64,000 nt of DNA from Pontiella sp. (GTDB lineage Bacteria; Verrucomicrobiota; Kiritimatiellia; Kiritimatiellales; Pontiellaceae): assembly GCA_050290185.1 (NCBI GenBank), contig JBNKHE010000005.1, forward strand, positions 192,001 to 256,000. Direction: 5' to 3'. Below the pieces are notes generated by a model that saw only the letters and a program-made list of their open reading frames with translations, had not been told where the DNA came from and did not search any database. This document shows positions 25,413 to 40,975 of the stretch, one piece after another (positions within the stretch are counted from its first letter, which is position 1; every line of letters begins with the position of its first letter). Made by a program: the position numbers and the translations under genes.

Positions 25413-25668
25413 TTATGGATTCAGTAATTTCTTTTCTGCCTGTACTAAAGCGCATGCTTCGTTTTCTTTCCAGTCAAACCCTCTGCCAAAGTGAAGTACG
25501 TTAAACCTGAATGAGTACCGAATCCGCGACGCTTCAGAAGAATGCATCCAAATAGTAATCAATCAATTCCTCATGAATTTGTCCGTCCAGTCCCGAATCT
25601 CCTCATAGTAGTCCGAATAGCCCGCAAACCAGCAAAACCACCATATTTAGAGCAAATCACAAACCATA

Positions 25669-25696
25669 TATAGACATAAGATTTATTATGCGACGT
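25669..25696 (-). other. dif-like XerC/XerD recombination site (attL; probable chromosomal dif)
   Basis: Minus strand reads ACGTCGCATAA-TAAATC-TTATGTCTATA, the same 11-6-11 architecture and inner CGCATAA/TTATGT as E. coli dif (GGTGCGCATAA-TGTATA-TTATGTTAAAT). Confidence 0.85.
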
Positions 25697-25826
25697 TCTA
25701 ATTGTAAGTAACTCTGTTAATAGTTTTTGCATAAGTACCGAGGCCAAAAACTGGCCTGAAAAAAAGTGAAAATATTTTCATGCGATCCCCTCTAAAAATC
25801 GAATTTCGGATTTTGCGCAGTACGAA

Positions 25827-25988
25827 TTACGATTTTTCTTTGTTCTCGATGGCCTTCGTGATCAACAAGGCAAGCTTTCCTTGTTCGATGGCAGAAAGCT
25901 TTTCTAGTCCGTTGATCGTCGTGCGCAACATGGCATCTCTTATTAGCTTTGCGCGCTTTCGTTTCGTTGCTGGAAGAAATGGATTCAT
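25827..25988 (-). CDS. prophage small basic hypothetical protein (53 aa)
   Basis: MNPFLPATKRKRAKLIRDAMLRTT...; TAATG coupling to the upstream gene; below the ORF-track cutoff. Confidence 0.55.
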   Translation of the reverse strand: MNPFLPATKRKRAKLIRDAMLRTTINGLEKLSAIEQGKLALLITKAIENKEKS

Positions 25989-26224
25989 TATTCTTTAGAA
26001 GAAATTTCAGAGGCCCGATACCAAACCATCGTACCAGGAATGAGAAGCATCCGACCTTGACGCTTTCCTGTCTTGTGGTCGATCAAGCCTTCCGTCCACA
26101 TTCCGGAAGCCGGCACACGGTAGACGGCATCAGGATTGAATGTTGTTGTCAGCTTCGTACTGGCGCAGCTCGTCATTAAGAGAGTCACGCAAGCTATCGT
26201 TATCATCGGCGGGGCTTTCTTCAT
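25988..26224 (-). CDS. prophage lipoprotein, o-spanin (Rz1)-like
   Basis: Lipobox LLMTSC after a basic/hydrophobic leader; 5' part overlaps the upstream membrane-protein gene in another frame. Confidence 0.6.
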   Translation of the reverse strand: MKKAPPMITIACVTLLMTSCASTKLTTTFNPDAVYRVPASGMWTEGLIDHKTGKRQGRMLLIPGTMVWYRASEISSKE

Positions 26225-26330
26225 ATTTCATAGCCTCTGATTTTTGATCATGCCTGGACAATAGAACCTTGAGCACGGAAACCGCGATTGCGGCCAGAAT
26301 CGTGCCCAAGGTTGCGGCGAGAGATTCCAC
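26130..26330 (-). CDS. prophage membrane protein, i-spanin (Rz)-like
   Basis: Single N-terminal TM (LAATLGTILAAIAVSVLKVLL) followed by a charged helical tail; overlaps the lipoprotein gene. Confidence 0.55.
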   Translation of the reverse strand: MESLAATLGTILAAIAVSVLKVLLSRHDQKSEAMKYEESPADDNDSLRDSLNDELRQYEADNNIQS

Positions 26331-26333
26331 CGG

Positions 26334-26618
26334 CTATTTACCGGCCTTGCTGCTCAAGTTAATGGCCAGCGTGTTGATGATCCGTTTTACGAATGCCCAG
26401 GCGGGCGGATCGGTTGGCTTGACCTCGAAGAAATTGGCAATGATTGAGCTGGCGGCCACCAGCAACGGCAGCACAACGGTCAACGCCATATCCCACCCTG
26501 CCGACCCCGTCGTTCCATCAACCGGCGCAACATCCGTCTGGGCCATTCCGATTGCGGGAAACATCAATACGACGAGCATCGCCAGCATTATAATCATTTC
26601 AGACATGTTCATTTTCAT
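26334..26618 (-). CDS. prophage holin-like membrane protein (94 aa)
   Basis: AAGGAG RBS, Met-Lys-Met start, two hydrophobic segments, basic C-terminus (LAINLSSKAGK); directly upstream of the spanin-like pair. Confidence 0.55.
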   Translation of the reverse strand: MKMNMSEMIIMLAMLVVLMFPAIGMAQTDVAPVDGTTGSAGWDMALTVVLPLLVAASSIIANFFEVKPTDPPAWAFVKRIINTLAINLSSKAGK

Positions 26619-26634
26619 TTTGATCTCCTTTGGG

Positions 26635-26811
26635 TTAATGAAATGCGTGGATTGCGCGATCCTCGATATGGCGATCCAGTCGAGCATGGGCTTTGCTGAT
26701 AGAGTTGTCCTGGTGATCGAGTCGGTTGAGCAAAAGCTTTATGGCAATCCCCGAAATGATCGTTTGAGCACCAAGCAACATTGCAATCACAACCCCTAGC
26801 GTTCCGTCCAT
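26635..26811 (-). CDS. prophage small membrane protein (58 aa)
   Basis: MDGTLGVVIAMLLGAQTIISGIAIKLLLNRLDHQD...RLDRHIEDRAIHAFH; TAATG coupling; not in the ORF track. Confidence 0.65.
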   Translation of the reverse strand: MDGTLGVVIAMLLGAQTIISGIAIKLLLNRLDHQDNSISKAHARLDRHIEDRAIHAFH

Positions 26812-27152
26812 TACGTCCCTACCTTCTTAAAAACTTGCGTGATCGGTTTCCGGTATGCAATGAGCGTCGTTAGGCCAAGGGCCACCAGCGTTGATATTGC
26901 TGCCTTGGCGATAGTTTTCCCGGTGGCCGTGGCAGCGGTGGCGATTTGATCTCTGTATCCCCCAACCGTTTCGGCCACGGCCCCAGGAAGTTGAGCAATC
27001 AGTGAATCGTTTTGAAGTCCCCCATGGAATGCCACAAGTTCAGCGGTGCGCTGTTTTGGCCTGGAATCGTTCCATGTTGTCGCATTCCACCCGCGGGAAA
27101 TCAGGAAGTGCTTATAGGCTGGATTCGAATCGAGGGCATCCCATAGCGTCAT
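26811..27152 (-). CDS. prophage putative virion membrane protein with C-terminal TM
   Basis: C-terminal AAISTLVALGLTTLIAYRK; ATGA overlap with the upstream gene. Confidence 0.7.
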   Translation of the reverse strand: MTLWDALDSNPAYKHFLISRGWNATTWNDSRPKQRTAELVAFHGGLQNDSLIAQLPGAVAETVGGYRDQIATAATATGKTIAKAAISTLVALGLTTLIAYRKPITQVFKKVGT

Positions 27153-27835
27153 GGCGTTGCTCCATACAGTTCGGATCTACGACGCCACTCGGGCGAAACC
27201 GTAAAGATCACAACGTTTCCGGCTGCATCGCGGTATGGTTCGTGCGTCTTGTCGTAAAGAACCATATGCCAAGTAATGTTACGGGAATACTCGTTGACCT
27301 TGGCAGCGGCCAGCGTTGAGCGTGTCAACCAGGTTTCCGCCGAAAGCGGATTTGCATTTGGCGTCTCCAGTGCGAGACTATTGGCCGACATCAGCGCGTT
27401 GCTATTTCCGGTTGCTGCTGTTCGGTAATACACTTGCGCTTGTGTATCGACCTGAACACCAGTCTCGAAATTCTGGACATATTCAGTTCCCACATTAAAA
27501 ACGAATGTGTAGTACCCGTCGCCGTCGTAGGAAACGGGGCTCGGGCTTGCAAGTTCCGATAGCCCTCCCGACCATCCATAGGAAATTACGGACGCCTGCA
27601 ATGTTCCGTTGTACGAGTATGGAGTCGTAGAAATCGACGTAACCGTTTCGCCCGGATTGCCCGTCACAGTGGTGCTCCAAATTCCTAGCAGGACATTATC
27701 AACATGAACATTTAACACCGTGTTACTTGGTACGGTGCTGCCAAAATTGACAACGAGTTTATACCGCAATAAAACGGCGTTAGACTCCGATGCAGCAAGC
27801 AACCCAATGAGAGATAATAGAAATATTTTTTTCAT
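27149..27835 (-). CDS. prophage signal-peptide-bearing beta-rich protein (228 aa)
   Basis: AGGAG RBS; MKKIFLLSLIGLLAASESNA leader; Ser/Thr/Val-rich mature part. Confidence 0.7.
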   Translation of the reverse strand: MKKIFLLSLIGLLAASESNAVLLRYKLVVNFGSTVPSNTVLNVHVDNVLLGIWSTTVTGNPGETVTSISTTPYSYNGTLQASVISYGWSGGLSELASPSPVSYDGDGYYTFVFNVGTEYVQNFETGVQVDTQAQVYYRTAATGNSNALMSANSLALETPNANPLSAETWLTRSTLAAAKVNEYSRNITWHMVLYDKTHEPYRDAAGNVVIFTVSPEWRRRSELYGATP

Positions 27836-27846
27836 GCTTAAGACTC

Positions 27847-28395
27847 CTATTGTAGAACCGTCGACGACCAATTTTTTCCCTGCAAGCTTGGGTAGTTGTC
27901 CCATTCCGCGGTTGATATTGAACTTGCATAAAATACCGGCGTCCCTGGAGCCGACTGGTCGATCGCGAACAATTCAAAATCACAATACGGGAATGTATTT
28001 GTGTTGATTCCCGAGGTGACGTTCGTTGTCACCAGATCCATAGCGGCAAAGGTTGGCGACACATTGGTCGTAATGGTTGCGACTGGCGCGAACGTCGGTG
28101 TCATGTTGGTAACGCTCACAAGTCCATTGCTAACGGTCGTGAATGACACAACATTTGTCACCCAGCCAGATAGAGCCTGAACGGTGTTCGTTGAAACATT
28201 GGTCACGCTCCCCGAATACGCCTGAACGGTGTTCGTTGAAATATTGGTCGCGGCAGCGGTGAATTCCGGTTGCAACTGCACAGGAATCACAAACCTCGCA
28301 TACGGTTTATAGATTGGATTGTTTATTGAGCTTTGGCCGAATGCTGCCGAAGCGCACACGGCAAAAATCATTAGTGCTGCAAAAAGTGTCCGCAT
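27847..28395 (-). CDS. prophage signal-peptide-bearing protein with Thr-Asn repeats
   Basis: MRTLFAALMIFAVCASAAFG leader; repeated TN(I/V)STNTVQA and TNxxPTFA units. Confidence 0.7.
   Translation of the reverse strand: MRTLFAALMIFAVCASAAFGQSSINNPIYKPYARFVIPVQLQPEFTAAATNISTNTVQAYSGSVTNVSTNTVQALSGWVTNVVSFTTVSNGLVSVTNMTPTFAPVATITTNVSPTFAAMDLVTTNVTSGINTNTFPYCDFELFAIDQSAPGTPVFYASSISTAEWDNYPSLQGKNWSSTVLQ
28175..28249. repeat. intragenic tandem duplication, 45-bp period
   Basis: GCCTGAACGGTGTTCGTTGAAA at 28175-28196 and 28220-28241. Confidence 0.8.
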
Positions 28396-28397
28396 AA

Positions 28398-29099
28398 TTA
28401 CCCCTTCATGATTTCATTGATCGAAAGTGTGCTGTCGGCATCTTGCGCCACGAAATAGATTACACCGTGACAACTGAGGGACACCGAACCGCTCGGGAAG
28501 ATCGGGGTTCCCCTGCCCGCAGCCGGATTGACAGAGGAATCGCCCCACCATATTGTATAGTCGCCCGTGTTCACAACCAGGCGTTCTTTGACCAGAGCAT
28601 TCGCGGCCAGGACTGAGGGGTTTGCCGGATCTGTTCCAACGGCAAGCGGAGCGGGTGTGCTGACTGAAGACCCCGACAAATCGACTTGCAGAAATCCTTC
28701 AATGACCGCCCGCGTGTCAGTGATCGGCCCCAGGGAAAGGACATATTCAATCGTCATAGATTCATCACTGGTATTATGAAACCGAACCTTGTTGAAGGTC
28801 GCCGGTTCGTAGGTCTTCTTATCGGGAGACAAACGGACAACCGGATAGCCGGTTCCGGCCTTGATGAAATTTGAAATTCCATTGTCCATGGAAATTAGCA
28901 CGTCAGTCGAAGCGGTGTTCGAAAAAATAGCGACGTATGATCCAAGGAATGGAACTTCCTTCTCTGACTGGGCTGAAACTGTAACTTTCCCGAATTTCTG
29001 ATTATTGGAAATCGGCATATCCGAGTAAGGAACCTTTTGACTCTGTGCGGCCATCACGGCGGCAACAATGGCCTGGATGTCTTCCGGGGTCAGATTCAT
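28398..29099 (-). CDS. prophage putative vertex/penton-like structural protein
   Basis: 233-aa beta-strand-rich protein in the structural block; function inferred from position only. Confidence 0.5.
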   Translation of the reverse strand: MNLTPEDIQAIVAAVMAAQSQKVPYSDMPISNNQKFGKVTVSAQSEKEVPFLGSYVAIFSNTASTDVLISMDNGISNFIKAGTGYPVVRLSPDKKTYEPATFNKVRFHNTSDESMTIEYVLSLGPITDTRAVIEGFLQVDLSGSSVSTPAPLAVGTDPANPSVLAANALVKERLVVNTGDYTIWWGDSSVNPAAGRGTPIFPSGSVSLSCHGVIYFVAQDADSTLSINEIMKG

Positions 29100-29707
29100 C
29101 TTTTCTTACGTCCTTTCACGACCATTCCAACCAGGATCAATCCCCCTAGCCCAAGGCCTAGATTTGCTTTGGTGAAAATTGTTTTTTGTTTGGCCCCTGG
29201 TGTCGTTGGCTTGGAAATTCCGCCCCCTGACACAGTAGACCCACTTAGGAATGCCGGAGCTGCCGACAACTGCCCCGGTGAAAAATTATCAAGCACCTTG
29301 TTCGTGTTTTCGTAGGTGAGCTGCAAAGCCTGGTCGATGATCTCTTGTGTACGTTCATCGAGCGCATGGTTCACGTAGCTCGACCCCTCGCCCACAGTGA
29401 CACCGTAATTGACGCTCGAACCGTCGCCGATGATTTGCCCCTGGTTATTATCCATTGAGGTTTGGTTCACGGTGTATTCAGACCCGACGCCTTGCTGAAT
29501 GCCATTGTTGACCGCAGACCTGTCGCCATATATGACGCCTTGGTTTCCATCGATCTGACTTGCATTATCGCCGAGAACGGTCGCCCCGATTCCGACATCA
29601 GTACGGACGTTAGATGCCCCCTCCCCCAGCACAACGGCGTTATCAGACGCCATCATATTATTGTTCGTCGTTTGCTGCCGGTTAGATTGTTTGGATCCGC
29701 CGCCCAT
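29096..29707 (-). CDS. prophage virion membrane protein (PM2 P10-like position and architecture)
   Basis: MGGGSKQSNRQQTTNNN start, Gly/Asn/Ser-rich repeats, C-terminal TM LGLGLGGLILVGMVV followed by KGRKKR. Confidence 0.65.
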   Translation of the reverse strand: MGGGSKQSNRQQTTNNNMMASDNAVVLGEGASNVRTDVGIGATVLGDNASQIDGNQGVIYGDRSAVNNGIQQGVGSEYTVNQTSMDNNQGQIIGDGSSVNYGVTVGEGSSYVNHALDERTQEIIDQALQLTYENTNKVLDNFSPGQLSAAPAFLSGSTVSGGGISKPTTPGAKQKTIFTKANLGLGLGGLILVGMVVKGRKKR

Positions 29708-30159
29708 TAGACAATCCTCTTGTAATAGGTTTCGACCTTAACGAACCCATGTTGCTCCAACCGGCGATCCATGCCTTGGCGCATACTTCTAACGCTCCAT
29801 GATTCGATTCGGCTTTTTTCGGCGAGTCCGTGTAGCAATGGATAAAGGGTGCAGATGAACGGAATTTCCTGTTGAACTACCGACACCGCGTGCAAAACGA
29901 GGAAATTGCAGGGTTTCCCATATTCACATTCAACCTGGCCGGTAACGATCCCGATCAGCTCGCCTTCCCGCTCAACTCGATAAAGCAGAATTCCCCCGCT
30001 TCGAATCTGATTTTCGATCCAGTCCAGACGATCAACCAACCCGACCCGGGCGGTCGTATTGTTTCTCTCCGATCTGGCAATCAGATTGCGAACGCCCGGA
30101 AACATATCCGAACGTTCGCACCGAACCACCGCTAGATCTATGACTTGTGAATCAGCCAT
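29707..30159 (-). CDS. prophage GNAT-fold-like protein
   Basis: LYRVEREGELIGIV...FLVLHAVS...SVRSMRQGMDRRLEQHGF...ETYY resembles GNAT strand order and the C-terminal 'L...GF' motif. Confidence 0.5.
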   Translation of the reverse strand: MADSQVIDLAVVRCERSDMFPGVRNLIARSERNNTTARVGLVDRLDWIENQIRSGGILLYRVEREGELIGIVTGQVECEYGKPCNFLVLHAVSVVQQEIPFICTLYPLLHGLAEKSRIESWSVRSMRQGMDRRLEQHGFVKVETYYKRIV

Positions 30160-30332
30160 GCCGAAATTCCGCCAATTGCAGCCATTCCGAGCAGCCCGAA
30201 CGCGATGGATTTACCAACCCCTCCACCGATCAAGGTCTGGCGGGCACCAGCAATAGCACCGAAGTCATTGCTCGTTGGCCCGTTAGACCCGCCCGTAAAG
30301 GAGGGATTGACAGTTACACCGCCGCCGCCCAC
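30138..30332 (-). CDS. prophage small Gly-rich virion membrane protein (PM2 P8-like), 64 aa
   Basis: GTG start overlapping the upstream TAG; MGGGGVTVNPSFTGGSNG...; C-terminal TM plus basic end. Confidence 0.65.
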   Translation of the reverse strand: MGGGGVTVNPSFTGGSNGPTSNDFGAIAGARQTLIGGGVGKSIAFGLLGMAAIGGISAWLIHKS

Positions 30333-30616
30333 TACTTGCCATCCTTTGATTTCATCCAAAGGCCCATCCCCAGCAGAAGCGAAGTCCCGCCGCCAAACCA
30401 AACCCACTTAGAAATCTTTTTGGGTTTGGCCGGTTCGGCAGGTGCGTTCATTGGAGCGGCAGCAACGGGGGCGGTCGGACTTCCGACCTGTTGACCGTCC
30501 CCATTGAATCCGGTGGCATCGTAGATCCTGCTTGCGGCAGCGTCCGCCCCCGCCGTGACCAGTCGCTGACCAACGTTCGAGTTTAGACCGCTGTTTAATA
30601 GATCCCGAAGAGCCAT
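30332..30616 (-). CDS. prophage virion membrane protein (PM2 P3-like position), 94 aa
   Basis: Directly downstream of the capsid gene; Ala/Pro linker, then C-terminal TM WVWFGGGTSLLLGMGLWM plus KSK. Confidence 0.7.
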   Translation of the reverse strand: MALRDLLNSGLNSNVGQRLVTAGADAAASRIYDATGFNGDGQQVGSPTAPVAAAPMNAPAEPAKPKKISKWVWFGGGTSLLLGMGLWMKSKDGK

Positions 30617-30618
30617 GG

Positions 30619-31506
30619 CTACGCCGCCTTTCGATCCTTGAAGATCTGTTCGTACCACAGGCGACCGTTCGAGGTTACGCCAGCACCGTCATCCGCGAAA
30701 TTCGGAGTGACCAGGAGCGACCCCAGGCCGGTTTCGAAGAAATACGCCGGAACGTCTTCCTTGTTGAAATCGACCGTCGCAAATCCAGCCTGCGGCGAAC
30801 GATAGCGGTACTCCAGCCATCTGTTGATGATGACCTGGGGAACATCCCGATAGGGATACTGCTTGGAGTTGATTGCGACTGTCCAATCGGCAACCGACAA
30901 GTGCGCGGGCTCCTCGAAGTGAAGGGCATTCAGGCACAGGTTCGGATTGTCGAACGGAATCGTCGAGATTTCAACCTGTCCGCCACCGGCAGGAACCGTC
31001 ACCGACTGACTGCCGATACGAACGTGGTCGCCCAGTTCCTGTTTCAGGTTGAAGTCCACGTCTGCCCAGATGTCGATCCGGGTGCATCCGGTCGTATCGG
31101 CAGAATATTGGAACTCCGCCGTCATGGCCTTAAGATCCGCGGTTCCGATCGTCAACTGGTTGCGACGGCCTTCGTCCTTGCCAACACCGGCAGCAGGATC
31201 AAAGTTGATCTGCGACGCACTTGCGGCCACGCCGATCGTTTCATAATGAAACGCATCGCGATAATTCAGGAACGAGGGAGTCACCTTATTGAGCAGCGCG
31301 AATCCGTCGCCGTTCTGGTGGTCGACACTCAGTGTCAAATTGGCGAGTGCATCAGCAAGCGCCGTGCCCGCACATAACGTGCCGCCATTCCACCCCTGGA
31401 AAATGAACTTCCCGAAAGTGCCCTGGTGCTTGATGTCGATTTCAATCGGTTCATTGCCGCCATCTGAGACATTCACCGATCCGATTTTGAGAGGATTCCG
31501 AATCAT
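30619..31506 (-). CDS. double-jelly-roll major capsid protein, PM2 P2-like (295 aa)
   Basis: Segments RRNQLTIGTADLKAMTAEF, GQVEISTIP...LNALHF and QAGFATVDF occur in the same order as similar segments of PM2 P2 as I recall it (RMFALGTVGL, GTTEIADLP...IAAIHI, TYTIDF). Size and gene context fit. Start ATG 31506 is coupled by TAATG. Confidence 0.82.
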   Translation of the reverse strand: MIRNPLKIGSVNVSDGGNEPIEIDIKHQGTFGKFIFQGWNGGTLCAGTALADALANLTLSVDHQNGDGFALLNKVTPSFLNYRDAFHYETIGVAASASQINFDPAAGVGKDEGRRNQLTIGTADLKAMTAEFQYSADTTGCTRIDIWADVDFNLKQELGDHVRIGSQSVTVPAGGGQVEISTIPFDNPNLCLNALHFEEPAHLSVADWTVAINSKQYPYRDVPQVIINRWLEYRYRSPQAGFATVDFNKEDVPAYFFETGLGSLLVTPNFADDGAGVTSNGRLWYEQIFKDRKAA

Positions 31507-31667
31507 TACGCGGCCGCCTTTCCTGTTGCGCCTGCGACGGTCGACTTGACCCTCGCTTCGGCTTTCATCATCGCACCGTGCAGACGGTTCGCGATCATTG
31601 ACCCGACCACAACCAGGGCAACTAAGCCCAAAGGGTTGGCCGGTAGCATTTTTTTCTTCGCACTCAT
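31506..31667 (-). CDS. prophage small membrane protein upstream of the capsid gene (PM2 P7-like position), 53 aa
   Basis: AAGGAG RBS; MSAKKKMLPANPLGLVALVVVGSMIANRL...; not in the ORF track. Confidence 0.75.
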   Translation of the reverse strand: MSAKKKMLPANPLGLVALVVVGSMIANRLHGAMMKAEARVKSTVAGATGKAAA

Positions 31668-31760
31668 GTTGGCTTTTCTCCTTGGTTGTGATTTCCAACT
31701 TTCAGAAATAATTGTTTCACGGAAAAAAGCCGTTGGTCAGTTCGAGCGGAATTTCGCGGG

Positions 31761-31799
31761 AAAAAAGAAAGGGAACCCCTGAAATAAAGGGATTCCCTT
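31761..31799 (-). terminator. intrinsic terminator between the replication/packaging genes and the capsid operon
   Basis: Minus strand: AAGGGAATCCCT-loop-AGGGGTTCCCTT followed by TCTTTTTT. Confidence 0.7.
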
Positions 31800-31828
31800 G
31801 CGAAATTTTACTAATTTTGTGCGGTCAG

Positions 31829-31990
31829 TTAATGCATTTTCGAGCGCATTTCAATCCAGTCATTGAAAAGATACCTTTCCGCTGTCCGCTCAAACGCAGT
31901 TGATTCGTTCCACATTACTTCTGTCCAACCTCTACGGATAAGGAACCGCTTATATGGCAAATCAAGCTTCAGGCACTCCCAAAAACTCAT
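31829..31990 (-). CDS. prophage 53-aa protein, paralogue of the N-terminus of the 26811-27152 product
   Basis: GAGGTGGAG RBS; MSFWECLKLDLPYKRFLIRRGWTEVMWNESTAFERTAE...; 19/42 ungapped identities (manual count). Confidence 0.75.
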   Translation of the reverse strand: MSFWECLKLDLPYKRFLIRRGWTEVMWNESTAFERTAERYLFNDWIEMRSKMH

Positions 31991-32018
31991 TATTCTCCAC
32001 CTCTGCTAAGTTGTTGTT

Positions 32019-32207
32019 CTACCTTTTCGATCCAGATACTTTGTGCCAAACATAAGAACCAATTCCAGCATTCGGGTATTTGTTTCTGAACACTTTATAG
32101 TCAATGGTTGTGCATCCTCCAATCACCCCAAATACAATCAGAATGAACCCGAAAATTACCCAGTAGTCTTTGAATTTTCTCATAGCTTTATTCATGTGCA
32201 TCTCCAT
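32019..32207 (-). CDS. prophage small membrane protein or lipoprotein
   Basis: Hydrophobic stretch WVIFGFILIVFGVIGG followed by Cys. Confidence 0.6.
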   Translation of the reverse strand: MEMHMNKAMRKFKDYWVIFGFILIVFGVIGGCTTIDYKVFRNKYPNAGIGSYVWHKVSGSKR

Positions 32208-32435
32208 TTATTTCCCGCCCCTCACCAACTTCCACCAGTGCCGCCGTGCCGTGCGTTCTGAGCAGCCGACGGTCTTGGCCACCTGCGCCGGTGTAACATC
32301 GGCCAACCCGCGCGGATCAGCGACAATCAGTAAATTCCAAAGTGCGACAACTTGAGGAAAAAAGCCACGCTTTGGTTTTTTACTGGACCCCGACCCAACT
32401 ACTTGTCCCCGGTTCCCCGTACCATGCTGTTCCAT
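32208..32435 (-). CDS. prophage helix-turn-helix protein (start uncertain)
   Basis: TPAQVAKTVGCSERTARRHW HTH signature. Confidence 0.65.
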   Translation of the reverse strand: MEQHGTGNRGQVVGSGSSKKPKRGFFPQVVALWNLLIVADPRGLADVTPAQVAKTVGCSERTARRHWWKLVRGGK

Positions 32436-32979: not shown

Positions 32980-33193
32980 CGTCGCACCCCGGAATTTCCT
33001 CTTCGTCGCCATGCACGATATGCGAAATGAACTCTCGATTGATTTTTTCATTTCGCGCCTCACGAAGTTCCTCAAAAAGCCTGATTAGAGAAATTCCAAG
33101 CAGCAATCCACCAAACGTCACTAACACCCCACGAATATATGCAGCGTCAGCTATCAATATCTCTCGCTCTGTTAGCTTAAGATTTTCCATCAA
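32960..33193 (-). CDS. prophage small membrane protein
   Basis: Central TM GVLVTFGGLLLGISLIRLF; overlaps both neighbours. Confidence 0.65.
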   Translation of the reverse strand: MMENLKLTEREILIADAAYIRGVLVTFGGLLLGISLIRLFEELREARNEKINREFISHIVHGDEEEIPGCDDETADD

Positions 33194-34065: not shown

Positions 34066-34067
34066 CT

Positions 34068-34262
34068 CTAGGACTCCACCACTTTGACAGTAACGTCATC
34101 ATTTGCATAAATTGATATCTTATACCCAGCCGGTTGATTCCTGTTCAGCGGTTGCTTTTTCAGGACTTTCGCACCACTCGCTTTTTTCGCCGCCTCGAAA
34201 GCGTTCTTCGCGTCAACGAATTGATGACCACCACCGTTTACATGTACTTTGAACCGTCTCAT
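34068..34262 (-). CDS. prophage hypothetical protein
   Basis: 64 aa, AAGGAG RBS, tightly packed in the operon. Confidence 0.6.
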   Translation of the reverse strand: MRRFKVHVNGGGHQFVDAKNAFEAAKKASGAKVLKKQPLNRNQPAGYKISIYANDDVTVKVVES

Positions 34263-34265
34263 TCT

Positions 34266-34457
34266 CTATGCTCCTTTGTTGTCTTCTATTGCTGAACTCA
34301 CTTTCAATTTCACGAACGCCGTTGCGTCCGCGATTGCCTTTTTCGCCTCCTTGGGCGAGTCCTTTGTTCCCATCGGAATCCACTGTTCGAAAAGTTCCAG
34401 TGAACTTTTGATAATTTTCGCTTCATCCTCGGAAATTTGTAGTGAGATGATTTTCAT
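34266..34457 (-). CDS. prophage hypothetical protein
   Basis: 63 aa, tightly packed after ssb. Confidence 0.6.
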   Translation of the reverse strand: MKIISLQISEDEAKIIKSSLELFEQWIPMGTKDSPKEAKKAIADATAFVKLKVSSAIEDNKGA

Positions 34458-34459
34458 GG

Positions 34460-34867
34460 TTAGAACGGAATATCATCTTCGTACTCAACCGCGCCACCTG
34501 GAGCCCGGGATTCATCAGGAATTGGCGCGCCCTTTTTTCCCGATCCAAGGAACTGCACGCGATCCGCCCGGACGCGCAGCTTTTGCCGCTTCTCGCCGCC
34601 ATCGGTTTCCCATTGGTCGAGCTGCAACCGGCCTTCGACAAACACGGGCGATCCCTTGGTCAGATATTCCGCCGAGGTTTCCGCCTGGCGGCCCCAAACA
34701 ATCACATCCACGAAACAGACCTGCTCCACCTTCTCGCCTGCCTTGTTCTTGAATGTCTCATTCATCGCCAATCCGATTTCAGCCACCGCCGTTCCCGTCG
34801 CCGTATGCCTCAAATCCACATCGCGTGTCAGATTTCCCATCACTAGCACTCTGTTATAGCTCGCCAT
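34460..34867 (-). CDS. ssb: single-stranded DNA-binding protein (prophage copy)
   Basis: NRVLVMGNLTRD, WGRQAE...YLTKGSPVFVEGRL, C-terminal DDIPF. Confidence 0.95.
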   Translation of the reverse strand: MASYNRVLVMGNLTRDVDLRHTATGTAVAEIGLAMNETFKNKAGEKVEQVCFVDVIVWGRQAETSAEYLTKGSPVFVEGRLQLDQWETDGGEKRQKLRVRADRVQFLGSGKKGAPIPDESRAPGGAVEYEDDIPF

Positions 34868-36527
34868 CGTCGTATCCTTTCTTTATGTCGTTCCACTCTT
34901 GCCACACGGCATGAGCTTCCTCGTGTTTCCCTTCATCATGGAGCCGTCTATATTTTTTCCGGAACTCGCGTTCTTGGGCCTCCATATATTTCTGCTCCAT
35001 TGATTTCTTCCGTTCCCGTTCTGCAAACCGCTCCGCCTTGTCCTTCATAATTTGCTCAAACACTTCATCGACGGTTCGTGGGTCGCCCCATTTTAAATCG
35101 AATTTCCACCCATCTTTTCCAAGTGCTACAACACGCAGCATCCCGAGAACCCACGATTCAAATTGGTCATAATTCCGAAACGAATATTTCGATTCATTCG
35201 TCACCGGACGTTTTGGAATCACGAATCCCTTATTCCATGCAGCGGCTTCAAGAACTCCAAATGCCTGCTTTATCAAGGCTTCCACGTCTGCATTATCCGG
35301 CTCAACTATGACAAGAGGCTCAGGAGCCCCGAAATTCCGGCTAAATGTATCCTGTACGATTTTCCATTTTACCGATGTCCTGTCTTTTTCCGGATGTTTG
35401 ACATTGCGGCGCTTCGTTAAAAAACGGAACCAACGCATAATTTTCATACGCTTGCTTTTCTGGCAAAACATCGGGTCATCACGAGCGCCAGTTAGATACC
35501 CCAAAACAGCGCCTCCCTTGGCCTTCCAGTCGGCATACGAATCAATCCCCCACTCTCGCAGTTTGTCGCGTGAGATTTGATATTCGACACGCACCGCGCT
35601 TTCTGGCCGTTCACCGCCCCACCGCTTTTTAATCATGTGTTCAAAGCGGATAGGCTCACCTCTCAGAGCCTTGGCTTCCATTTCCCCAAGTTTGTCGTAT
35701 ATACGCAGTCGAAGAGGATTATTCCCCCAATAGAGCGTCATTGAGTTCGATTTCTGGAAGTCCAGCGAGTTAGCCCTACATCGCCACTTACGGCCTACGA
35801 ATGCTGAAACGAAATAATCCATCGACCACCCCGGAAAATCCGCGCACGCATCCACGCGGGAAATCATTTCCTTATCGATTTGAACATCCAGCGATTCCAA
35901 CCACTTGATCGCGTCATTGTACGCTTCATCCGCCCCACCTCGATAAACCAGACAAATTTCCCCCGGTATATGGATTTGGACGTTCGGCCATGTCCCGGCA
36001 TAGGTTTCGTTCTCCGCGATTAACACAGTTCCAAAATCAAGCGTCATGCGGTATTTGCAGTATTTGCCGGACTTCCCTGCCCCCTTCCCGATGCTGCCGC
36101 CACCCGGCTGCATTACCGCGCCACCAAGATCAGCGCAATCAATAGGCTTCCGCTGCTCCAAAGCGGCCATTGCGGGGGTGTCAAAAAGCGGGTGAATTTT
36201 GGTCCACTCCAAAAATTTCACTTGAAAATTCAATGTTAGCCAATCAGAGCCGCACCAATACGGATTCTGCGGGGTGTTTCCTTGAGGCTTACGAGGGGGC
36301 ATGTTATCTGTCATGCCCCCGGACGCTGACGCGGACACAGCGGGCGCGGAAATACCAATTTTGGCATCAAATTTCCGAGATGCTTCTAACGCCTTCATAG
36401 CGCCATCAAAATCGCTCACAGTGCCTTCATCGAACAACTTGGCAACCATGACCGCCTCTTCGGACGACACCTCAACTCCGTTAATTTCAGGCACGGTAAA
36501 GGCCTCCTGCTGTGAGAACATCGTCAT
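34854..36527 (-). CDS. rolling-circle replication initiator, Rep_trans (pT181/RstA-like) family
   Basis: DWLTLNF, ISRVDACADF, TLYWG...RLRIYDK, RVEYQ motifs in the expected order. Confidence 0.8.
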   Translation of the reverse strand: MTMFSQQEAFTVPEINGVEVSSEEAVMVAKLFDEGTVSDFDGAMKALEASRKFDAKIGISAPAVSASASGGMTDNMPPRKPQGNTPQNPYWCGSDWLTLNFQVKFLEWTKIHPLFDTPAMAALEQRKPIDCADLGGAVMQPGGGSIGKGAGKSGKYCKYRMTLDFGTVLIAENETYAGTWPNVQIHIPGEICLVYRGGADEAYNDAIKWLESLDVQIDKEMISRVDACADFPGWSMDYFVSAFVGRKWRCRANSLDFQKSNSMTLYWGNNPLRLRIYDKLGEMEAKALRGEPIRFEHMIKKRWGGERPESAVRVEYQISRDKLREWGIDSYADWKAKGGAVLGYLTGARDDPMFCQKSKRMKIMRWFRFLTKRRNVKHPEKDRTSVKWKIVQDTFSRNFGAPEPLVIVEPDNADVEALIKQAFGVLEAAAWNKGFVIPKRPVTNESKYSFRNYDQFESWVLGMLRVVALGKDGWKFDLKWGDPRTVDEVFEQIMKDKAERFAERERKKSMEQKYMEAQEREFRKKYRRLHDEGKHEEAHAVWQEWNDIKKGYDDGEL

Positions 36528-37269
36528 TATCTAGCGGATCCAATAGACGACTATGCTCGATGATAGACGAAAGTAACTCTGGTCCACCGATTTTGTCTAT
36601 GAGTCCGGATAAAATCGCATTGCGTTCCACGGGATCCAGCACAGCCAATTTTGACTGTAGGCGATCGATCTTGCGGCGGATGCGTTGCCGCTCCGTGAAA
36701 TTGCGGCCGACATAGCTATAATCGTGCAGAACTTCCGGCACCCGATAGTTGAACCAGATAATTTCCCGCCGGATGGTGCGGCCCCTGGTTATTGCATCGT
36801 ACTCAAAATGATTCCAATCCCATAGCGCATCGCGGTACAAGCTGCTGTCATAGCCTGAGATGGCCACCATAGCCGATGCCGACGTTATGAGATCCAGCAA
36901 CCGAATATGATCATCCCGGCTCATTTCGGCGGAATACATACTCTTCTTAACCCGCGTTTCTGGGAGATATGGCGGATCGCAATAAACGAAAACATCCTCT
37001 CGATCCAAAACGCTTGGAAGATAATCGAAAGCATCCCTGTGAAGCACCGTCGCGTCTTTACTGCGATCAAGATCATCGTAGACCATGGACATAAGCGACT
37101 CTGCTGCAGCCAAGTCCTTTTCGACTAGCACGGATCCGTGAGACGGTAATTTGTTACGCCACACAGCCGCCGAACCAGCGAACGCTTCCACGTAAAGGCA
37201 ATGCGGCGGAATCAGATTGATTATGTGCTGATACGCACCGCCTGCGTTTTTTCCGCCTGGATACCTCAT
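36487..37269 (-). CDS. DNA adenine methyltransferase (Dam/D12 class)
   Basis: MRYPGGK, YVEAFAGSAAV, VYCDPPY, ISGY, EIIWFNY. Confidence 0.92.
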   Translation of the reverse strand: MRYPGGKNAGGAYQHIINLIPPHCLYVEAFAGSAAVWRNKLPSHGSVLVEKDLAAAESLMSMVYDDLDRSKDATVLHRDAFDYLPSVLDREDVFVYCDPPYLPETRVKKSMYSAEMSRDDHIRLLDLITSASAMVAISGYDSSLYRDALWDWNHFEYDAITRGRTIRREIIWFNYRVPEVLHDYSYVGRNFTERQRIRRKIDRLQSKLAVLDPVERNAILSGLIDKIGGPELLSSIIEHSRLLDPLDNDDVLTAGGLYRA

Positions 37270-37994
37270 CTATTCACCTCGGAAATTGCTGCGTGATAAA
37301 GTAGCCATTTTGCTAGTAATGGCGGCGTTGCTTCGCGTTGGGCTGCTGATAGGTGGTGAATCTGCTTTAATGGTGAAAAGTGCAGCACAGGACGAATTGG
37401 AACGATTTTGGCATAGTCCAATCCCGAGAAAAAAAACCATGTAGGCTTCATCATGGCGTGACCGAAAATCCGTTGAGGAAATTCAAGCGTGAATCCTTTT
37501 TCGTTCGCGTATCCGCCGAATGGCAGCCCTTGATCGGCGAATAGATCCGACGCTGCCGGATGTTCCAGCACTCCACCATTTTCAAGAACCATTCGAACGC
37601 AATGCCGCCCGAGATTGATTTCGCGCCGCTTTGCATCGGGTGCCATGTCGGGCATTCCCTTGAGACTTCCCCATAGGCGACATGGTGGATGTGCCACAAC
37701 CGGCATTCCGCCCGTGAATCTAAATGCATCGCGCCGGATATCCCAAATATCGGCTTCGACTATCTGGCTAAAGTCCTGGTCCTGCTGGCTGTTGCGATCG
37801 AGGAACTGGCTAGAACGCCCGGGCAACTGGCTTTGCTCCTGGTCCTCCTGGCTGCGACTGCCAGATGGCTGGCTTGAATGCCGGCCTAACTGGCTGCTTC
37901 CCTCGATCTGCTGGCCACAACATCCGGAGGACTGGCTATAGACACCTTTTTTTTGGGCACACAGCACTGCAACGCGTCGGAAGTGATAGCTCAT
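37266..37994 (-). CDS. putative DNA cytosine (C5) methyltransferase-like protein with an inserted heptad-repeat segment
   Basis: VVAHPPC (motif IV-like), VLEHP (motif VI-like), FGHAMMKPTW; ATGA coupling at both ends. Confidence 0.7.
   Translation of the reverse strand: MSYHFRRVAVLCAQKKGVYSQSSGCCGQQIEGSSQLGRHSSQPSGSRSQEDQEQSQLPGRSSQFLDRNSQQDQDFSQIVEADIWDIRRDAFRFTGGMPVVAHPPCRLWGSLKGMPDMAPDAKRREINLGRHCVRMVLENGGVLEHPAASDLFADQGLPFGGYANEKGFTLEFPQRIFGHAMMKPTWFFFSGLDYAKIVPIRPVLHFSPLKQIHHLSAAQREATPPLLAKWLLYHAAISEVNR
37764..37937. repeat. array of 9 CTGGCT hexamers at an exact 21-bp period with 8 divergent 15-bp spacers
   Basis: Hexamer starts at 37764, 37785, 37806, 37827, 37848, 37869, 37890, 37911 (CTGGCC) and 37932. 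Confidence 0.92.
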
Positions 37995-38254
37995 ACGAAC
38001 ACCCCCGGCGATGGATTGGCGATGCTGCACGCCGGAAGGTGTCGGGGCCATTGGCCGCCGCAATTCGAACAAAAATAATCTTCCGGTGCGGACGGGTTCC
38101 GGCTTCGCCGGGGGTTTCCGCTTTGGGAGGCAAAGCAGTTGGAATCAGGAATGGCCGGGGTGGACTGCTTCACCTCCGGCAAGGCGCTCGGGACGCTCCC
38201 CAGCGTTGCCCTATCCTCCTTACCGATTAATTTGTCCACCCCGGCCAATGACAT
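37991..38254 (-). CDS. prophage hypothetical protein with CxxC motif
   Basis: 87 aa, TAATG/ATGA coupled; FCSNCGG...H...C. Confidence 0.5.
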   Translation of the reverse strand: MSLAGVDKLIGKEDRATLGSVPSALPEVKQSTPAIPDSNCFASQSGNPRRSRNPSAPEDYFCSNCGGQWPRHLPACSIANPSPGVFV

Positions 38255-38463
38255 TAGAAAAGCTCTTTCTGGACTGGTTTTGGTTTGTCTGACGGTATTT
38301 CCGACAAGCGGAATCGAGGCACTCTGGCGTATGGCGATCCCTCTTTTTTCGGGTCGATGATTTTGCACCAGCCTTTTCCGGCCCATGCCAAAAACGTCAC
38401 CTTGCGAGGGGTGCCGTTGGTCGGCGTGTAGTGGTAATCATGATGAGCTTTAAGCTTGGGCAT
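38254..38463 (-). CDS. prophage hypothetical protein (69 aa)
   Basis: GGAGG RBS; MPKLKAHHDYHY...QKELF; the C-terminus resembles a beta-clamp-binding motif. Confidence 0.6.
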   Translation of the reverse strand: MPKLKAHHDYHYTPTNGTPRKVTFLAWAGKGWCKIIDPKKEGSPYARVPRFRLSEIPSDKPKPVQKELF

Positions 38464-38599
38464 ATCCTGGCCTCCGTTCGTTTTCCTTGGGCACGTGCAG
38501 ACCGGCCGCACGGCGCAAAAACACTATTCGCCTGGCAGACTCTAAACCGCTATCGCGGAGGTATCGGTATTCGAGGCTTCTGAGTGTTCGGATGTCCAT
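38450..38599 (-). CDS. prophage small basic hypothetical protein (49 aa)
   Basis: GGAG RBS; MDIRTLRSLEYRYLRDSG... Confidence 0.4.
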   Translation of the reverse strand: MDIRTLRSLEYRYLRDSGLESARRIVFLRRAAGLHVPKENERRPGYAQA

Positions 38600-38721
38600 A
38601 GTCCCAGCTCCAGTTGATGTTTCTCTTTCCAAAATCCGCACCCCGGGACCGACATGCAGGCGCGGGCCGATGATTCAAGAACGCATGACCCTGATTTGTG
38701 GCAGTTATTGCACGAGTTCAC
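38542..38721 (-). CDS. prophage small Cys-rich protein (59 aa)
   Basis: GGAG RBS, GTGA coupling; MNSCNNCHKSGSC...AC...PGCGFW; not in the ORF track. Confidence 0.5.
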   Translation of the reverse strand: MNSCNNCHKSGSCVLESSARACMSVPGCGFWKEKHQLELGLWTSEHSEASNTDTSAIAV

Positions 38722-39185
38722 CGTAGCTCCGTTCGTTTGTTGTAAAGGTTGGTGGCCCAGGCCATGAGCACGAGAGCGGCAGGATCGCCCGCGACGTGGG
38801 CACAGAATTGGGCGTAGGATTGATCGATAACACGTTGCGGCAATGAACGCTTAAGCATGGCCGCCTCGAAATATTCGACATACTTTTCCATGCGGTTCTT
38901 GGCGTCCTGGAGCTGCATGAATTGCTCGGCTTCCCTATCGGACTCCAGGCGCAACGCTTCGCGGGCAATCTCCGCCTCGTAAATTTCATCGGTCTTGCTC
39001 GATCTCATTACGAGTGACACTGCGGCAATGCAGTTTTCTTTGATGTGGTGGCCGGTCATGGGCGGCAGCGTGGCTAATTCCTTGTTTAACAGATCCACCA
39101 AACCGAGATGTAAGGACCGGGGAAGCGCGGGAAGCCGCATTGATCCGGTCAGCCGTTCAATCTGTTTATCGGTGTTCGTGCTCAC
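38718..39185 (-). CDS. prophage hypothetical helical protein
   Basis: 155 aa, GTGA-coupled at both ends. Confidence 0.65.
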   Translation of the reverse strand: MSTNTDKQIERLTGSMRLPALPRSLHLGLVDLLNKELATLPPMTGHHIKENCIAAVSLVMRSSKTDEIYEAEIAREALRLESDREAEQFMQLQDAKNRMEKYVEYFEAAMLKRSLPQRVIDQSYAQFCAHVAGDPAALVLMAWATNLYNKRTELR

Positions 39186-39319
39186 AGCGTCACCCTCGCC
39201 GCTGCCTCGACCTGCTTTGTTTTTTCAACGGCACACCCTTTTATTGTTGCGCATCCGAATAGGATGAAAACAACCGCGACTACTGCGCTTAAAATATTCA
39301 CAAACCTCTGCTCCGTCAT
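39182..39319 (-). CDS. prophage small membrane protein (45 aa)
   Basis: MTEQRFVNILSAVVAVVFILFGCATIKGC...; TAATG/GTGA coupled. Confidence 0.55.
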   Translation of the reverse strand: MTEQRFVNILSAVVAVVFILFGCATIKGCAVEKTKQVEAAARVTL

Positions 39320-39393
39320 TAGATCGCCCCCAAATAAACAACCACGTTTAGAATTATTATTACGGCCAATGCGGTCATGAATGAGAGTTTCAC
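39319..39393 (-). CDS. prophage hydrophobic micropeptide (24 aa)
   Basis: MKLSFMTALAVIIILNVVVYLGAI; start overlaps the upstream stop and stop overlaps the downstream start. Confidence 0.45.
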   Translation of the reverse strand: MKLSFMTALAVIIILNVVVYLGAI

Positions 39394-39515
39394 AGCGTCA
39401 CCCCCGCGGCCTTGAGTTCTGATTTCATTTCGTCGATATGCTCTTGAGCCGAGCGAATGATTTCTTCCTCTTTGTCGATGCAGAATTTAATCTGGTCGAT
39501 TTCTTTCGCGCTCAT
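39390..39515 (-). CDS. prophage small coiled-coil-like protein (41 aa)
   Basis: MSAKEIDQIKFCIDKEEEIIRSAQEHIDEMKSELKAAGVTL; ATGA coupling. Confidence 0.55.
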   Translation of the reverse strand: MSAKEIDQIKFCIDKEEEIIRSAQEHIDEMKSELKAAGVTL

Positions 39516-39673
39516 TGCCAGCCCTCATCATTCATTCCCTGCTCGACCCGGCCGCGAACGTCCTCAAGTGCGATGATCTCTTCCGATTTCGTCGGATACT
39601 CACGGAAGAAAAGCAGTTGAAATAATGCAGATGCCTCTGTCTTGGATAACTCAATCGGAATTCTCGTTTCCAT
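39512..39673 (-). CDS. prophage small hypothetical protein (53 aa)
   Basis: AAGGAG RBS module; METRIPIELSKTEASALFQLLFFREYP... Confidence 0.6.
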   Translation of the reverse strand: METRIPIELSKTEASALFQLLFFREYPTKSEEIIALEDVRGRVEQGMNDEGWQ

Positions 39674-39685
39674 CGGTTCGGCTCC

Positions 39686-40126
39686 TTAATCCTGTGCGTA
39701 GTATTCGAGAAATACGGCGAGTTGCAGACAGAGTGCTGCGGTGTGCCGCGCTTGCTCCAGGAGTTGACCAGGCGTGTATTTTTCCGGCTCGAATTCGCTA
39801 TGAAGAAACGACTGCGACATCTTGCCGGTCTGCTCGTTGATGGCCAGGATCAGCGTTTCCGCGTTCTGCAATCCCCACTTGCACACGTTCTGGTGAGATT
39901 GGGCGCGGTGCTCCGCCTGTTCCCGATCGATAACGGCCTTTGTTTCGGCGGATAGTGCTATCAGTGCATTTGCGTCGCTCATCGGTTCGGCTCCTTTTGG
40001 TGTTGGCATTGTCGCGTCATCGAAATCATGCCCTTCGATCATTTCAATCATCATCGGGGCTACTTGCTGGAGGCACCCGTACATTTGTTTCAGCAGGTCT
40101 TGGATCGTCGGTGTATCGGTCTTCAT
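39686..40126 (-). CDS. prophage MazG-like (all-alpha NTP-PPase-like) paralogue 2, with internal start at 39982
   Basis: KWGLQ...INEQTGKMSQSFLHSEFEPEKY...QARHTAALC; internal RBS module directly before MSDANAL. Confidence 0.55.
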   Translation of the reverse strand: MKTDTPTIQDLLKQMYGCLQQVAPMMIEMIEGHDFDDATMPTPKGAEPMSDANALIALSAETKAVIDREQAEHRAQSHQNVCKWGLQNAETLILAINEQTGKMSQSFLHSEFEPEKYTPGQLLEQARHTAALCLQLAVFLEYYAQD

Positions 40127-40138
40127 CGGTTCGGCTCC

Positions 40139-40444
40139 TTACTTGTCCTGGTTCTCCAGGGCGATTGCTACCTGCATACAGAGTGCGGCCGTTTGTCTGG
40201 CTTGATGTAGGATTTGGCCCTTCTTGTATTTCTCCGGCTCAAATTCTGAATGTAAAAAGGCCTGTGAAATCTTTCCGGATTGCTCAGAGATACCGAGGCA
40301 AAGTGTTTCAACTTCCTGTTCTCCCCACCTGGCAAGATTTGAGGAAACCTGATTTCCGATACGGAACATTTCGGAATCAATAATTTCGATTGCCTTGCGG
40401 AATTTCGTTTCGTTAATCGGCATATCTGGCGGTGCTCCGGTCAT
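40139..40444 (-). CDS. prophage MazG-like (all-alpha NTP-PPase-like) paralogue 1
   Basis: RWGEQ...ISEQSGKISQAFLHSEFEPEKY...QARQTAALC; clearly paralogous to the adjacent gene. Confidence 0.55.
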   Translation of the reverse strand: MTGAPPDMPINETKFRKAIEIIDSEMFRIGNQVSSNLARWGEQEVETLCLGISEQSGKISQAFLHSEFEPEKYKKGQILHQARQTAALCMQVAIALENQDK

Positions 40445-40455
40445 TGGTTCGGCTC

Positions 40456-40584
40456 CTATTCTGATTCTTCTTCGTCTGCCCCGTAGGTGGGCGGAGTGGT
40501 TGCGGCTTCGATGGCTTGTTGTAGCTGCATGAAAAATTCGATCATGCTTTGGTTGTCGATTTCGTAGGTGACGGTAATTTTCAT
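40456..40584 (-). CDS. prophage small acidic protein (42 aa), first gene of the early operon
   Basis: GGAG RBS module; MKITVTYEIDNQSMIEFFMQLQQAIE... Confidence 0.55.
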   Translation of the reverse strand: MKITVTYEIDNQSMIEFFMQLQQAIEAATTPPTYGADEEESE

Positions 40585-40610
40585 CGGTCCGGCTCCATTT
40601 GGTTGCGTTA

Positions 40611-40644
40611 CGGTTACGTGACCAAGCAAAACAAAAAGCCGCAA
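40611..40644 (-). promoter_or_regulatory. putative early promoter with operator CGGTTACGTGAC
   Basis: Minus-strand TTGCGG (-35-like), 17 nt, then the palindrome over the -10 position. Confidence 0.5.
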
Positions 40645-40662
40645 TAGTATTTTTTACTACTA

Positions 40663-40869
40663 TTACGACTGAATGTGCTTAGGTTCTTTTTCTTCGCGAA
40701 TCAAAACGGCAGCCGCCCAGGATGAGAACGATGGGAAACCACATTGCTTTGCACGTGCTTCCAATTTCTCGTAATCACCCTTCGTGACCAGAACCTGAGC
40801 GTATTTCTTATCATCAGAAATGCTCATGCCCCGTTTTTTGACATTAGCGGTACGTTTTGTCGATCTCAT
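40663..40869 (-). CDS. prophage ribbon-helix-helix-type regulator (putative repressor)
   Basis: YAQVLVTKGDYEKLEARAKQCGFPSFSSWAAAVL fits an RHH pattern; GAGGT/AAGGA RBS; flanked by repeated palindromes. Confidence 0.6.
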   Translation of the reverse strand: MRSTKRTANVKKRGMSISDDKKYAQVLVTKGDYEKLEARAKQCGFPSFSSWAAAVLIREEKEPKHIQS

Positions 40870-40893
40870 AATCCTTACCTCTCGGTTAAGTGT

Positions 40894-40927
40894 CGGTTAC
40901 GTAACGCTAAAAACCTAAACACGTCAA
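40894..40927 (-). promoter_or_regulatory. putative regulator promoter with operator CGGTTACGTAAC
   Basis: Minus-strand TTGACG, 17 nt, then the palindrome over the -10 position; same geometry as at 40611-40644. Confidence 0.55.
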
Positions 40928-40947
40928 CACTTCGTTCTATGACGGTC

Positions 40948-40975
40948 ACGTGACTCTCGGTATATTATGCGACGT
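40948..40975 (-). other. attR: intact XerC-type arm with degenerate XerD-side arm
   Basis: Minus strand reads ACGTCGCATAA-TATACC-GAGAGTCACGT; the first arm is identical to that of the left site. Confidence 0.8.

Follow-up and report, generated by a model that had tools for sequence, protein, structure and literature searches.

The window analysed here is a stretch of 64,000 nucleotides from Pontiella sp. (positions 192001-256000 of contig JBNKHE010000005.1, henceforth C5, which measures 287 kb, in assembly GCA_050290185.1). Between two host genes it contains a prophage with the capsid gene of a double jelly-roll (DJR) virus, which is bounded on its left by a complete dif site (attL) and on its right by a half-site (attR; Table 1). 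The AlphaFold model of the major capsid protein (MCP), built with 14 homologs, has a mean predicted local distance difference test score (pLDDT) of 89.3, and its best match in the Protein Data Bank (PDB) is P2 of phage PM2 (2vvf_A, E 2.7e-17, template modelling scores 0.73/0.79), followed by the DJR capsid proteins of PBCV-1, SGIV, STIV, PRD1 and ΦCjT23. The fold is therefore a double jelly-roll, as expected from the first-pass annotation of the window, which was made from its letters alone and had proposed a capsid-forming DJR virus.

The 557-aa open reading frame (ORF) of the element could be identified by its fold. The model (pLDDT 83.3) matches the rolling-circle initiators RepSTK1 (4cij, E 3.6e-11) and RepDE (4cwc, E 4.6e-6), and Pfam Rep_trans is found in 3 of 25 aligned homologs. 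The protein of the window itself matches no family, and its profile found nothing among PDB sequences at E<=1. As modelled, this ORF is a replication protein and not a site-specific recombinase. The genes for the MCP, the packaging ATPase, the replication initiator (Rep) and the single-strand DNA-binding protein (SSB) are intact and contain no stops.

Table 1. Coordinates of the element, its attachment sites and the flanking host genes within the window
Feature	Position	Strand	Basis and remarks
attL, complete dif	25669..25696		XerD-type arm 25669-25679 (host), centre 25680-25685, XerC-type arm 25686-25696
attR, half-site	40948..40975		degenerate XerD-side arm 40948-40958, centre GGTATA 40959-40964, XerC arm 40965-40975
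Prophage unit	25697..40975	minus (all credible genes)	15,279 bp; synteny with related elements, empty junction 25696/40976
MCP, double jelly-roll, PM2 P2-like	30619..31503	minus	Pfam P2_C E 8.6e-5 (below cut-off); fold
Packaging ATPase, Walker A, FtsK/HerA-like	32380..33075	minus	phrog_2666 E 6.5e-13; weak HerA match 2.6e-6; kept in related elements
Rolling-circle replication initiator, Rep_trans-like, 557 aa	34854..36527	minus	fold and homologs
SSB	34460..34867	minus	PF00436 E 2.4e-32; phrog_44
N6-adenine DNA methyltransferase, D12/Dam class	36487..37269	minus	PF02086 E 1.1e-8; phrog_56; PADLOC MTase_II
Conserved phage protein phrog_12600	37266..38072	minus	E 1.6e-32; no Pfam, NCBIfam or PADLOC family
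Conserved structural-module protein	28398..29099	minus	in all related elements, 39-55% identity in 8 loci
Small 68-aa protein adjoining attR	40663..40869	minus	weak NikA-like match E 0.0044
Two tandem paralogous genes	39686..40444 (39686-40126, 40139-40444)	minus	58% identity over 77 aa, near attR
Host flank, CNNM/CBS/CorC_HlyC transporter-associated gene (corC/hlyC-type)	24153..25412	minus	
Host flank, arginyl-tRNA synthetase (argS)	41379..43106	minus	

On the plus strand attL reads TATAGACATAA / GATTTA / TTATGCGACGT (XerD-type arm / centre / XerC-type arm) and attR reads ACGTGACTCTC / GGTATA / TTATGCGACGT. Both sites are as the first-pass annotation had described them, namely a complete 28-bp dif-like site on the left and, on the right, an identical XerC arm with another spacer and an unrecognisable XerD arm, the latter matching the real XerD arm at 3 of 11 positions. 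The arms were named by the E. coli convention for XerC and XerD arms. They were also compared with the dif consensus quoted in PMC12715192, which is that of Vibrio and agrees with attL at 9 of 11 positions on each arm. The exact direct repeat shared by attL and attR is 13 bp long (25684-25696 = 40963-40975) and consists of the XerC arm and the two bases TA; in the 3.58-Mb assembly it has exactly these two copies, with three more places at one mismatch. The XerC-type arm of attL is phage-derived and identical to the host's own, and in attR the centre GGTATA is the phage's and the XerC arm the host's. The attP reconstructed from these junctions would have a ‘right-armed’ design, in which a perfect copy of the host XerC arm adjoins a centre like that of the host at 4 of 6 positions and no recognisable XerD arm.

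Three independent grounds (position, conservation and enzymes) identify the 28-mer of attL as the chromosomal dif. With up to 6 mismatches allowed, it occurs once in the assembly (163 contigs). The cumulative GC skew of C5 peaks at 211,222 (plateau 205,734-216,418) and then declines, and dif, at 217,669, lies ~6 kb from the peak; the result is the same with the element removed. The sole dnaA of the genome is located on contig C6 at a skew minimum, so the polarity of the skew is the usual one. Thus neither a better dif elsewhere nor a skew inversion far from this locus, both of which the first-pass annotation had named as signs that it was mistaken, was found. When a 701-bp query ending at the site was searched against 30 relatives, the 28-mer was covered by a match in 23 of them (26-74 bp, 75-97% identity); these span four coded genera, including other coded families of the order, and their flanks diverge or do not align. 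In the loci of relatives that were compared, dif reads TATAGACATAA or ATTAGACATAA, then GATATA or TATATA, then TTATGCGACGT. As for the enzymes, the host XerD scores 364 bits with TIGR02225 (equivalog cut-off 329.6 bits), and another recombinase of the Xer type matches the XerC model best, at 309 bits, under the equivalog cut-off of 335 bits.

The site is empty in several relatives. In seven genomes (G001, G002, G004, G007, G011, G016 and G017) dif and argS share a contig at a distance of 250-700 bp and nothing is inserted between them. Four of the seven (G002, G011, G016 and G017) also have a corC/hlyC-type gene on the far side of dif, matching the window in this respect; the argS-hlyC interval, which the first-pass annotation had proposed to compare in prophage-free relatives, is thus an uninterrupted corC-dif-argS. 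The element itself is present in four runs (X1-X4) of one study, whose contigs, which cannot show absence, were aligned over 24600-41900. In X3 and X4 one contig each follows the window as far as 25696; its loose end of 17 letters, AATGGTTGTTGACGAAA, is that of window 40976-40992, so that 25696 is joined to 40976 at the boundaries that had been predicted from the sequence. The evidence for attB is this loose end, no skip joint having been seen in the contigs of the four runs. The 13 repeat bases and these 17 make up a 30-base overlap, at which a unitig of k=31 would stop, and this is presumably why the contigs end there. The empty attB that had been predicted is therefore present in these samples alongside the occupied form. 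The two forms coexist without a difference in sequence from 24600 to 25696 (0 other letters), and the empty junction carries the centre GATTTA, as attL does. No attB-type end was seen in the contigs of X1 and X2, and the attP joint was seen in none of the four runs; hence one of the two predicted junctions, attB, was found and the other, that of the circle, was not, with contigs the material searched. Single contigs of X1 and X2 share ~30 bases with the window at 38186-38216 and diverge from it on both sides, and probably come from another organism or element with a common short word.

These observations also bear on whether the prophage is a fixed, immobile remnant and the empty junction a sign of strain heterogeneity only. 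A remnant would account for the missing attP joint and for the depth of the element contigs, which is below that of the flanks in all four runs, contig depth being a poor measure of copy number. We nevertheless hold it to be rather unlikely, given that the core genes are intact, that the occupied and empty forms coexist at identical sequence and that one relative is found on a permuted contig free of host DNA, as described below.

Among 89 genomes of the order, 8 encode a homolog of the MCP, that of the window included. By their source names, MCP homologs point to metagenome-assembled genomes of Pontiellaceae or Kiritimatiellales, and two of them (P0002 and P0005) are encoded on contigs of 14.9 and 15.8 kb without host DNA. 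In five related elements (G075, G083, G085, G031 and G006) a full dif is followed by the element and then by a half-site and host DNA, the half-site being an unrelated 11-mer, a centre and the XerC arm. Full dif and half-site are 11,975 bp apart in G075, 11,741 bp in G085, 12,170 bp in G083 and 11,886 bp in G031; the element of G006 is split over two contigs, and its half-site adjoins argS, as in the window. The gene order Rep, SSB, 291-aa protein, ATPase, MCP and 233-aa protein is common to the related elements. The XerD-side arm is degenerate in every one of the six ‘right-armed’ attP sites. The relatives from f3 hosts (G075, G083, G085 and the metagenome contig L080) and G031 have an attP whose centre is that of the host, GATATA. 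A mirror design is found in G020, where two tandem DJR units, 84-94% identical over their shared parts, occupy dif (G020:C9:79900-100370): here the XerD arm and centre are owned by the phage and the XerC side of the junction between the units is degenerate. The first of these units is truncated against host genes (lplA), and the left boundary of the array was looked for and not found. Compared with the prophages of G085 and G075, L080, a contig of 11,286 bp without host DNA, is circularly permuted, and the junction of right and left ends that it contains is exactly the deduced attP. It probably represents a free or concatemeric genome, a tandem prophage pair being a less likely source. In a further genome, G003 (72% complete), one locus (L049, G003:C179) has the typical host flank beside a half-site in which the XerC arm and the centre ATAGGA are preceded by an unrelated 11-mer; a dif match lies on another contig (G003:C212) and no MCP match was obtained, and judging from these sites the dif of G003 may hold a different Xer-exploiting element.

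Among the other genes of the element, the product of 28398..29099 is linked to one Atlas cluster, 32% of whose members carry PRD1_P5_spike_N, and is possibly, as a lead only, a vertex or spike protein. The 68-aa protein next to attR, which is probably a ribbon-helix-helix regulator, has homologs at the same end of the G031 element (75%) and of the second G020 element (53%). The tandem paralogs belong to no family in Pfam, NCBIfam-type libraries, PHROGs or PADLOC, and PADLOC, run on 14 element proteins, recognised the methylase only.

The sequences of the junctions restrict where the strands were exchanged. In G006 the centre of attL is GATATA, which is host-typical, and that of attR is GGTTCA. 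In the genome of the window (G000), attL and the empty junction both have GATTTA and attR has GGTATA. The attL and attR of G031 disagree at the outermost base of the XerC arm. It follows from the three elements that each centre stays with its own XerD-side arm, and hence that the exchange took place between the centre and the outer end of the XerC arm; in Xer chemistry, XerC cleaves at the boundary of XerC arm and centre. A crossover inside the centre, between a host GATATA and a phage GGTTTA, was considered and is ruled out by the GATTTA of the empty junction. Host and phage centres differ at 2 of 6 positions in G000 and at 3 of 6 in G006, and these mismatches favour an exchange that begins with XerC, as in VGJ and CTX.

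Family searches detected no recombinase in the element. PF00589 had no match inside it, all 10 matches in the genome lying elsewhere, and none of 145 stop-to-stop frames of >=60 aa matched a recombinase, a transposase or DUF3653 (XafT) at E<=0.01. Across six frames of the whole genome, DUF3653 gave nothing except one match at E 0.4 on another contig. In the genomes of five related hosts (G020, G031, G075, G083 and G085) PF00589 had 35 matches, 0 of them inside an element. Together with the replication fold of the largest ORF of unknown function, these results bear out the proposal of the first-pass annotation that the element lacks a recombinase. We considered whether it might have a recombinase of its own that is unseen by any library, dif being merely a conserved target. 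Room for such an enzyme exists in the unassigned ORFs at 37266-38072, 33190-34065, 27149-27904 and 29096-29707, and tailless Vibrio prophages at dif regularly carry integrase genes according to PMC11630473 (2024). This explanation is nonetheless highly improbable, as no tyrosine or serine recombinase or transposase signal came from the frames of this element or from five related elements, the crossover maps to the XerC cleavage boundary, and lineages with different accessory genes, even those with the mirror-image attP, all use dif.

Overall, the sites, the empty attB, the GC skew and the relatives make it very probable that the element is a temperate, tailless, PM2-like DJR virus of Pontiellaceae that integrated at dif without a recombinase, as an integrative mobile element exploiting Xer (IMEX) that relies on host XerC/XerD in a XerC-first exchange. 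The features of an IMEX are present: insertion at the chromosomal dif, no recombinase found, a dif-like attP with a regenerated dif, and host genes for XerC and XerD. Integration by the host enzymes is well supported, and the virus would presumably form virions and still be active. According to the proposed mechanism, XerC and XerD would catalyse the reaction by pairing attP of the circular genome with the chromosomal dif, and the crossover would fall at the boundary of XerC arm and centre, each centre keeping its own XerD-side arm. This would rebuild attL as a complete dif, so that dimer resolution is preserved, and would leave attR as a dead half-site. XerC would exchange first, as in VGJ and CTX, leaving a Holliday junction to be resolved by replication or by a tolerant second exchange; the free genome would be replicated by rolling circle through the Rep_trans initiator and SSB. 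The likeness to VGJ and CTX extends to centre homology on the XerC side only (2 bp, TA, in this case), to a crossover at the XerC boundary and to a Rep_trans-type initiator, RstA of CTX being assigned to the Rep_trans family. VGJ and CTX, however, are filamentous phages with single-stranded DNA that keep a XerD-binding arm, the attP of CTX being folded single-stranded DNA, whereas the XerD arm is absent here and the attP accords only in part with the VGJ/CTX-type definition.

Several points weigh against this interpretation. The empty junction may stem from cells of the same population that were never lysogenised and not from excision, the attP joint of the element is missing from the contigs of all four runs, and L080 could come from a tandem prophage pair instead of a free circle. 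The XerC-like protein of the host scores below the XerC equivalog cut-off. An unrecognised recombination factor may be among the four ORFs of 180-290 aa that matched no family. Finally, because attP has no XerD arm and no homolog of XafT/DUF3653 was found, activation of the synapse is left unexplained.

The last point leads to a route of the type used by the TLC satellite phage, which has a centre equal to that of dif1 and needs XafT, and for whose attP a degenerate XerD arm is a hallmark. By this route an element factor that is not homologous to XafT would activate XerD, which would exchange first and XerC second, in a complete and reversible reaction. The good XerC arm and degenerate XerD-side arm of the attP are shared with TLC, the latter in all six ‘right-armed’ sites, and a centre identical to that of the host (G075, G083, G085, L080 and G031) would permit both exchanges. 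The element departs from TLC in that its centre agrees at 4 of 6 positions and no XafT homolog was found, which places its attP outside the TLC-type definition; moreover, the differing centres of G000 and G006, each kept with its own XerD-side arm, are what a crossover at the XerC boundary predicts. A TLC-like route is therefore possible, above all for the relatives whose centre is the host's, if on the whole unlikely. XafT is named in PMC12715192, where dif-type DJR phages of Vibrio are reported to carry a homolog of it.

A further source of help could be the host DNA beside dif. In Pontiellaceae (f1) genomes the first 40 bases past the XerC arm (window 40976-41015) contain, on the same strand, TGTTGAT, 5 bases and TGTGGATAAC, often twice (loci L012, L014, L016, L017, L019, L021, L022, L025, L026, L040, L043, L046, L049 and L072), and these repeats are absent from the f3 genomes compared. 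TGTGNATAA is the reverse complement of the DnaA-box consensus. Labelling the repeats as DnaA boxes found no support, since TTATNCACA occurs only 58 times in the genome of the window, where its copies neither cluster nor come within 60 bp of one another and a single one is near dnaA. Phage DNA just inside attL (25697-25725) resembles the host flank outside attR (TTGT...TGTTAATA) at 13 of 25 positions (shuffle p ~0.02), and the elements of G006 (L029/L065) and G031 (L073) have a similar motif at the same offset beside the full dif. The phage may thus copy a dif-adjacent accessory site, and the three phages of f1 hosts appear to copy the dif-flank repeats next to attP. That the lineage recombines at dif without one Xer arm or a XafT homolog by relying on a new helper, either an unrelated phage activator of Xer or a host protein binding the TGTNNAT(AA) repeats (DnaA-box-like) outside the XerC arm, is in our view quite doubtful.

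The novelty that the first-pass annotation had implied for integrase-free DJR prophages at dif does not hold, as such prophages, one-armed attP included, have been in print since 2022 (PMC12715192, PMC9966536, PMC10589892 and PMC9719478; 2022-2025). PMC12715192 (Commun Biol 2025) describes ‘dif-type’ DJR prophages of Vibrio as IMEXs whose attP is 28 bp or a left- or right-armed 17 bp, with tandem arrays, a lysogeny module of the repressor P16 and the XafT homolog P15 flanking attP, and a left-armed attP in PM2 itself. The use of XerCD has also been proposed for vibriophage NO16 (proposed ‘Asemoviridae’; PMC9966536, 2023), Rhodobacter phage Jorvik and Jorvik-like prophages (PMC10589892) and ΦCjT23 (PMC9719478) and left open for some tailless Vibrio prophages (PMC11630473); the use of XerC/D by CTX is cited in PMC12715192 and in PMC1950889 (2007), the latter mentioning CTX only as a precedent. 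With the PM2-like dif-type phages (Vinavirales), those of Vibrio, PM2 and NO16, the Pontiella element shares the lack of an integrase, the location at dif, one junction that regenerates dif, the occurrence of tandem arrays, an attP that may copy one arm and the centre (17 bp), a DJR capsid, an FtsK/HerA-type ATPase and a genome of ~10-16 kb. It differs from them in its host (Kiritimatiellota here, Gammaproteobacteria there) and, from the Vibrio and PM2 phages, in its replication module of Rep_trans and SSB. Unlike the Vibrio phages, it has all its genes on one strand, where those have a divergent p15/p16 operon, and no P15/XafT (DUF3653) homolog was detected in it: the terminal genes encode the ribbon-helix-helix-like 68-aa protein and small ORFs, with no DUF3653 by Pfam. 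Jorvik is likewise a membrane DJR phage without an integrase, with dif-like attP and attB (PMC10589892), but its attB lies in the cbbII operon and varies with the host, whereas the element described here occupies the true chromosomal dif at the terminus. At the sequence level, tblastn with the MCP and the ATPase against 50,697 GenBank phage records gave no match, IMG/VR gave none for the MCP profile or for either sequence, and a single-protein MCP search of genome contigs was also negative; among metagenome proteins the MCP profile matched 176 representative clusters, 14 of them at E<=1e-30. The kinship with the core genes of PM2 and NO16 is, as the models indicate, structural only and not at the level of sequence.

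Such prophages are invisible to searches based on sequenced phages (0 matches in GenBank phages and 0 in IMG/VR), and that no XafT homolog was found puts a concrete question to Xer biochemistry. The in-silico support is unusually complete, in that the samples also contain the empty site, a contig is permuted across attP, and one virus lineage includes both one-armed attP designs. What is described here is a known lifestyle in a new host phylum, Kiritimatiellota, as far as the main text of PMC12715192 goes, the supplements of which may list hosts beyond Vibrio. It extends Xer hijacking by tailless DJR viruses to the Planctomycetes-Verrucomicrobia-Chlamydiae (PVC) group and shows that small capsid viruses lacking an integrase use dif as a general landing pad far outside Proteobacteria too.

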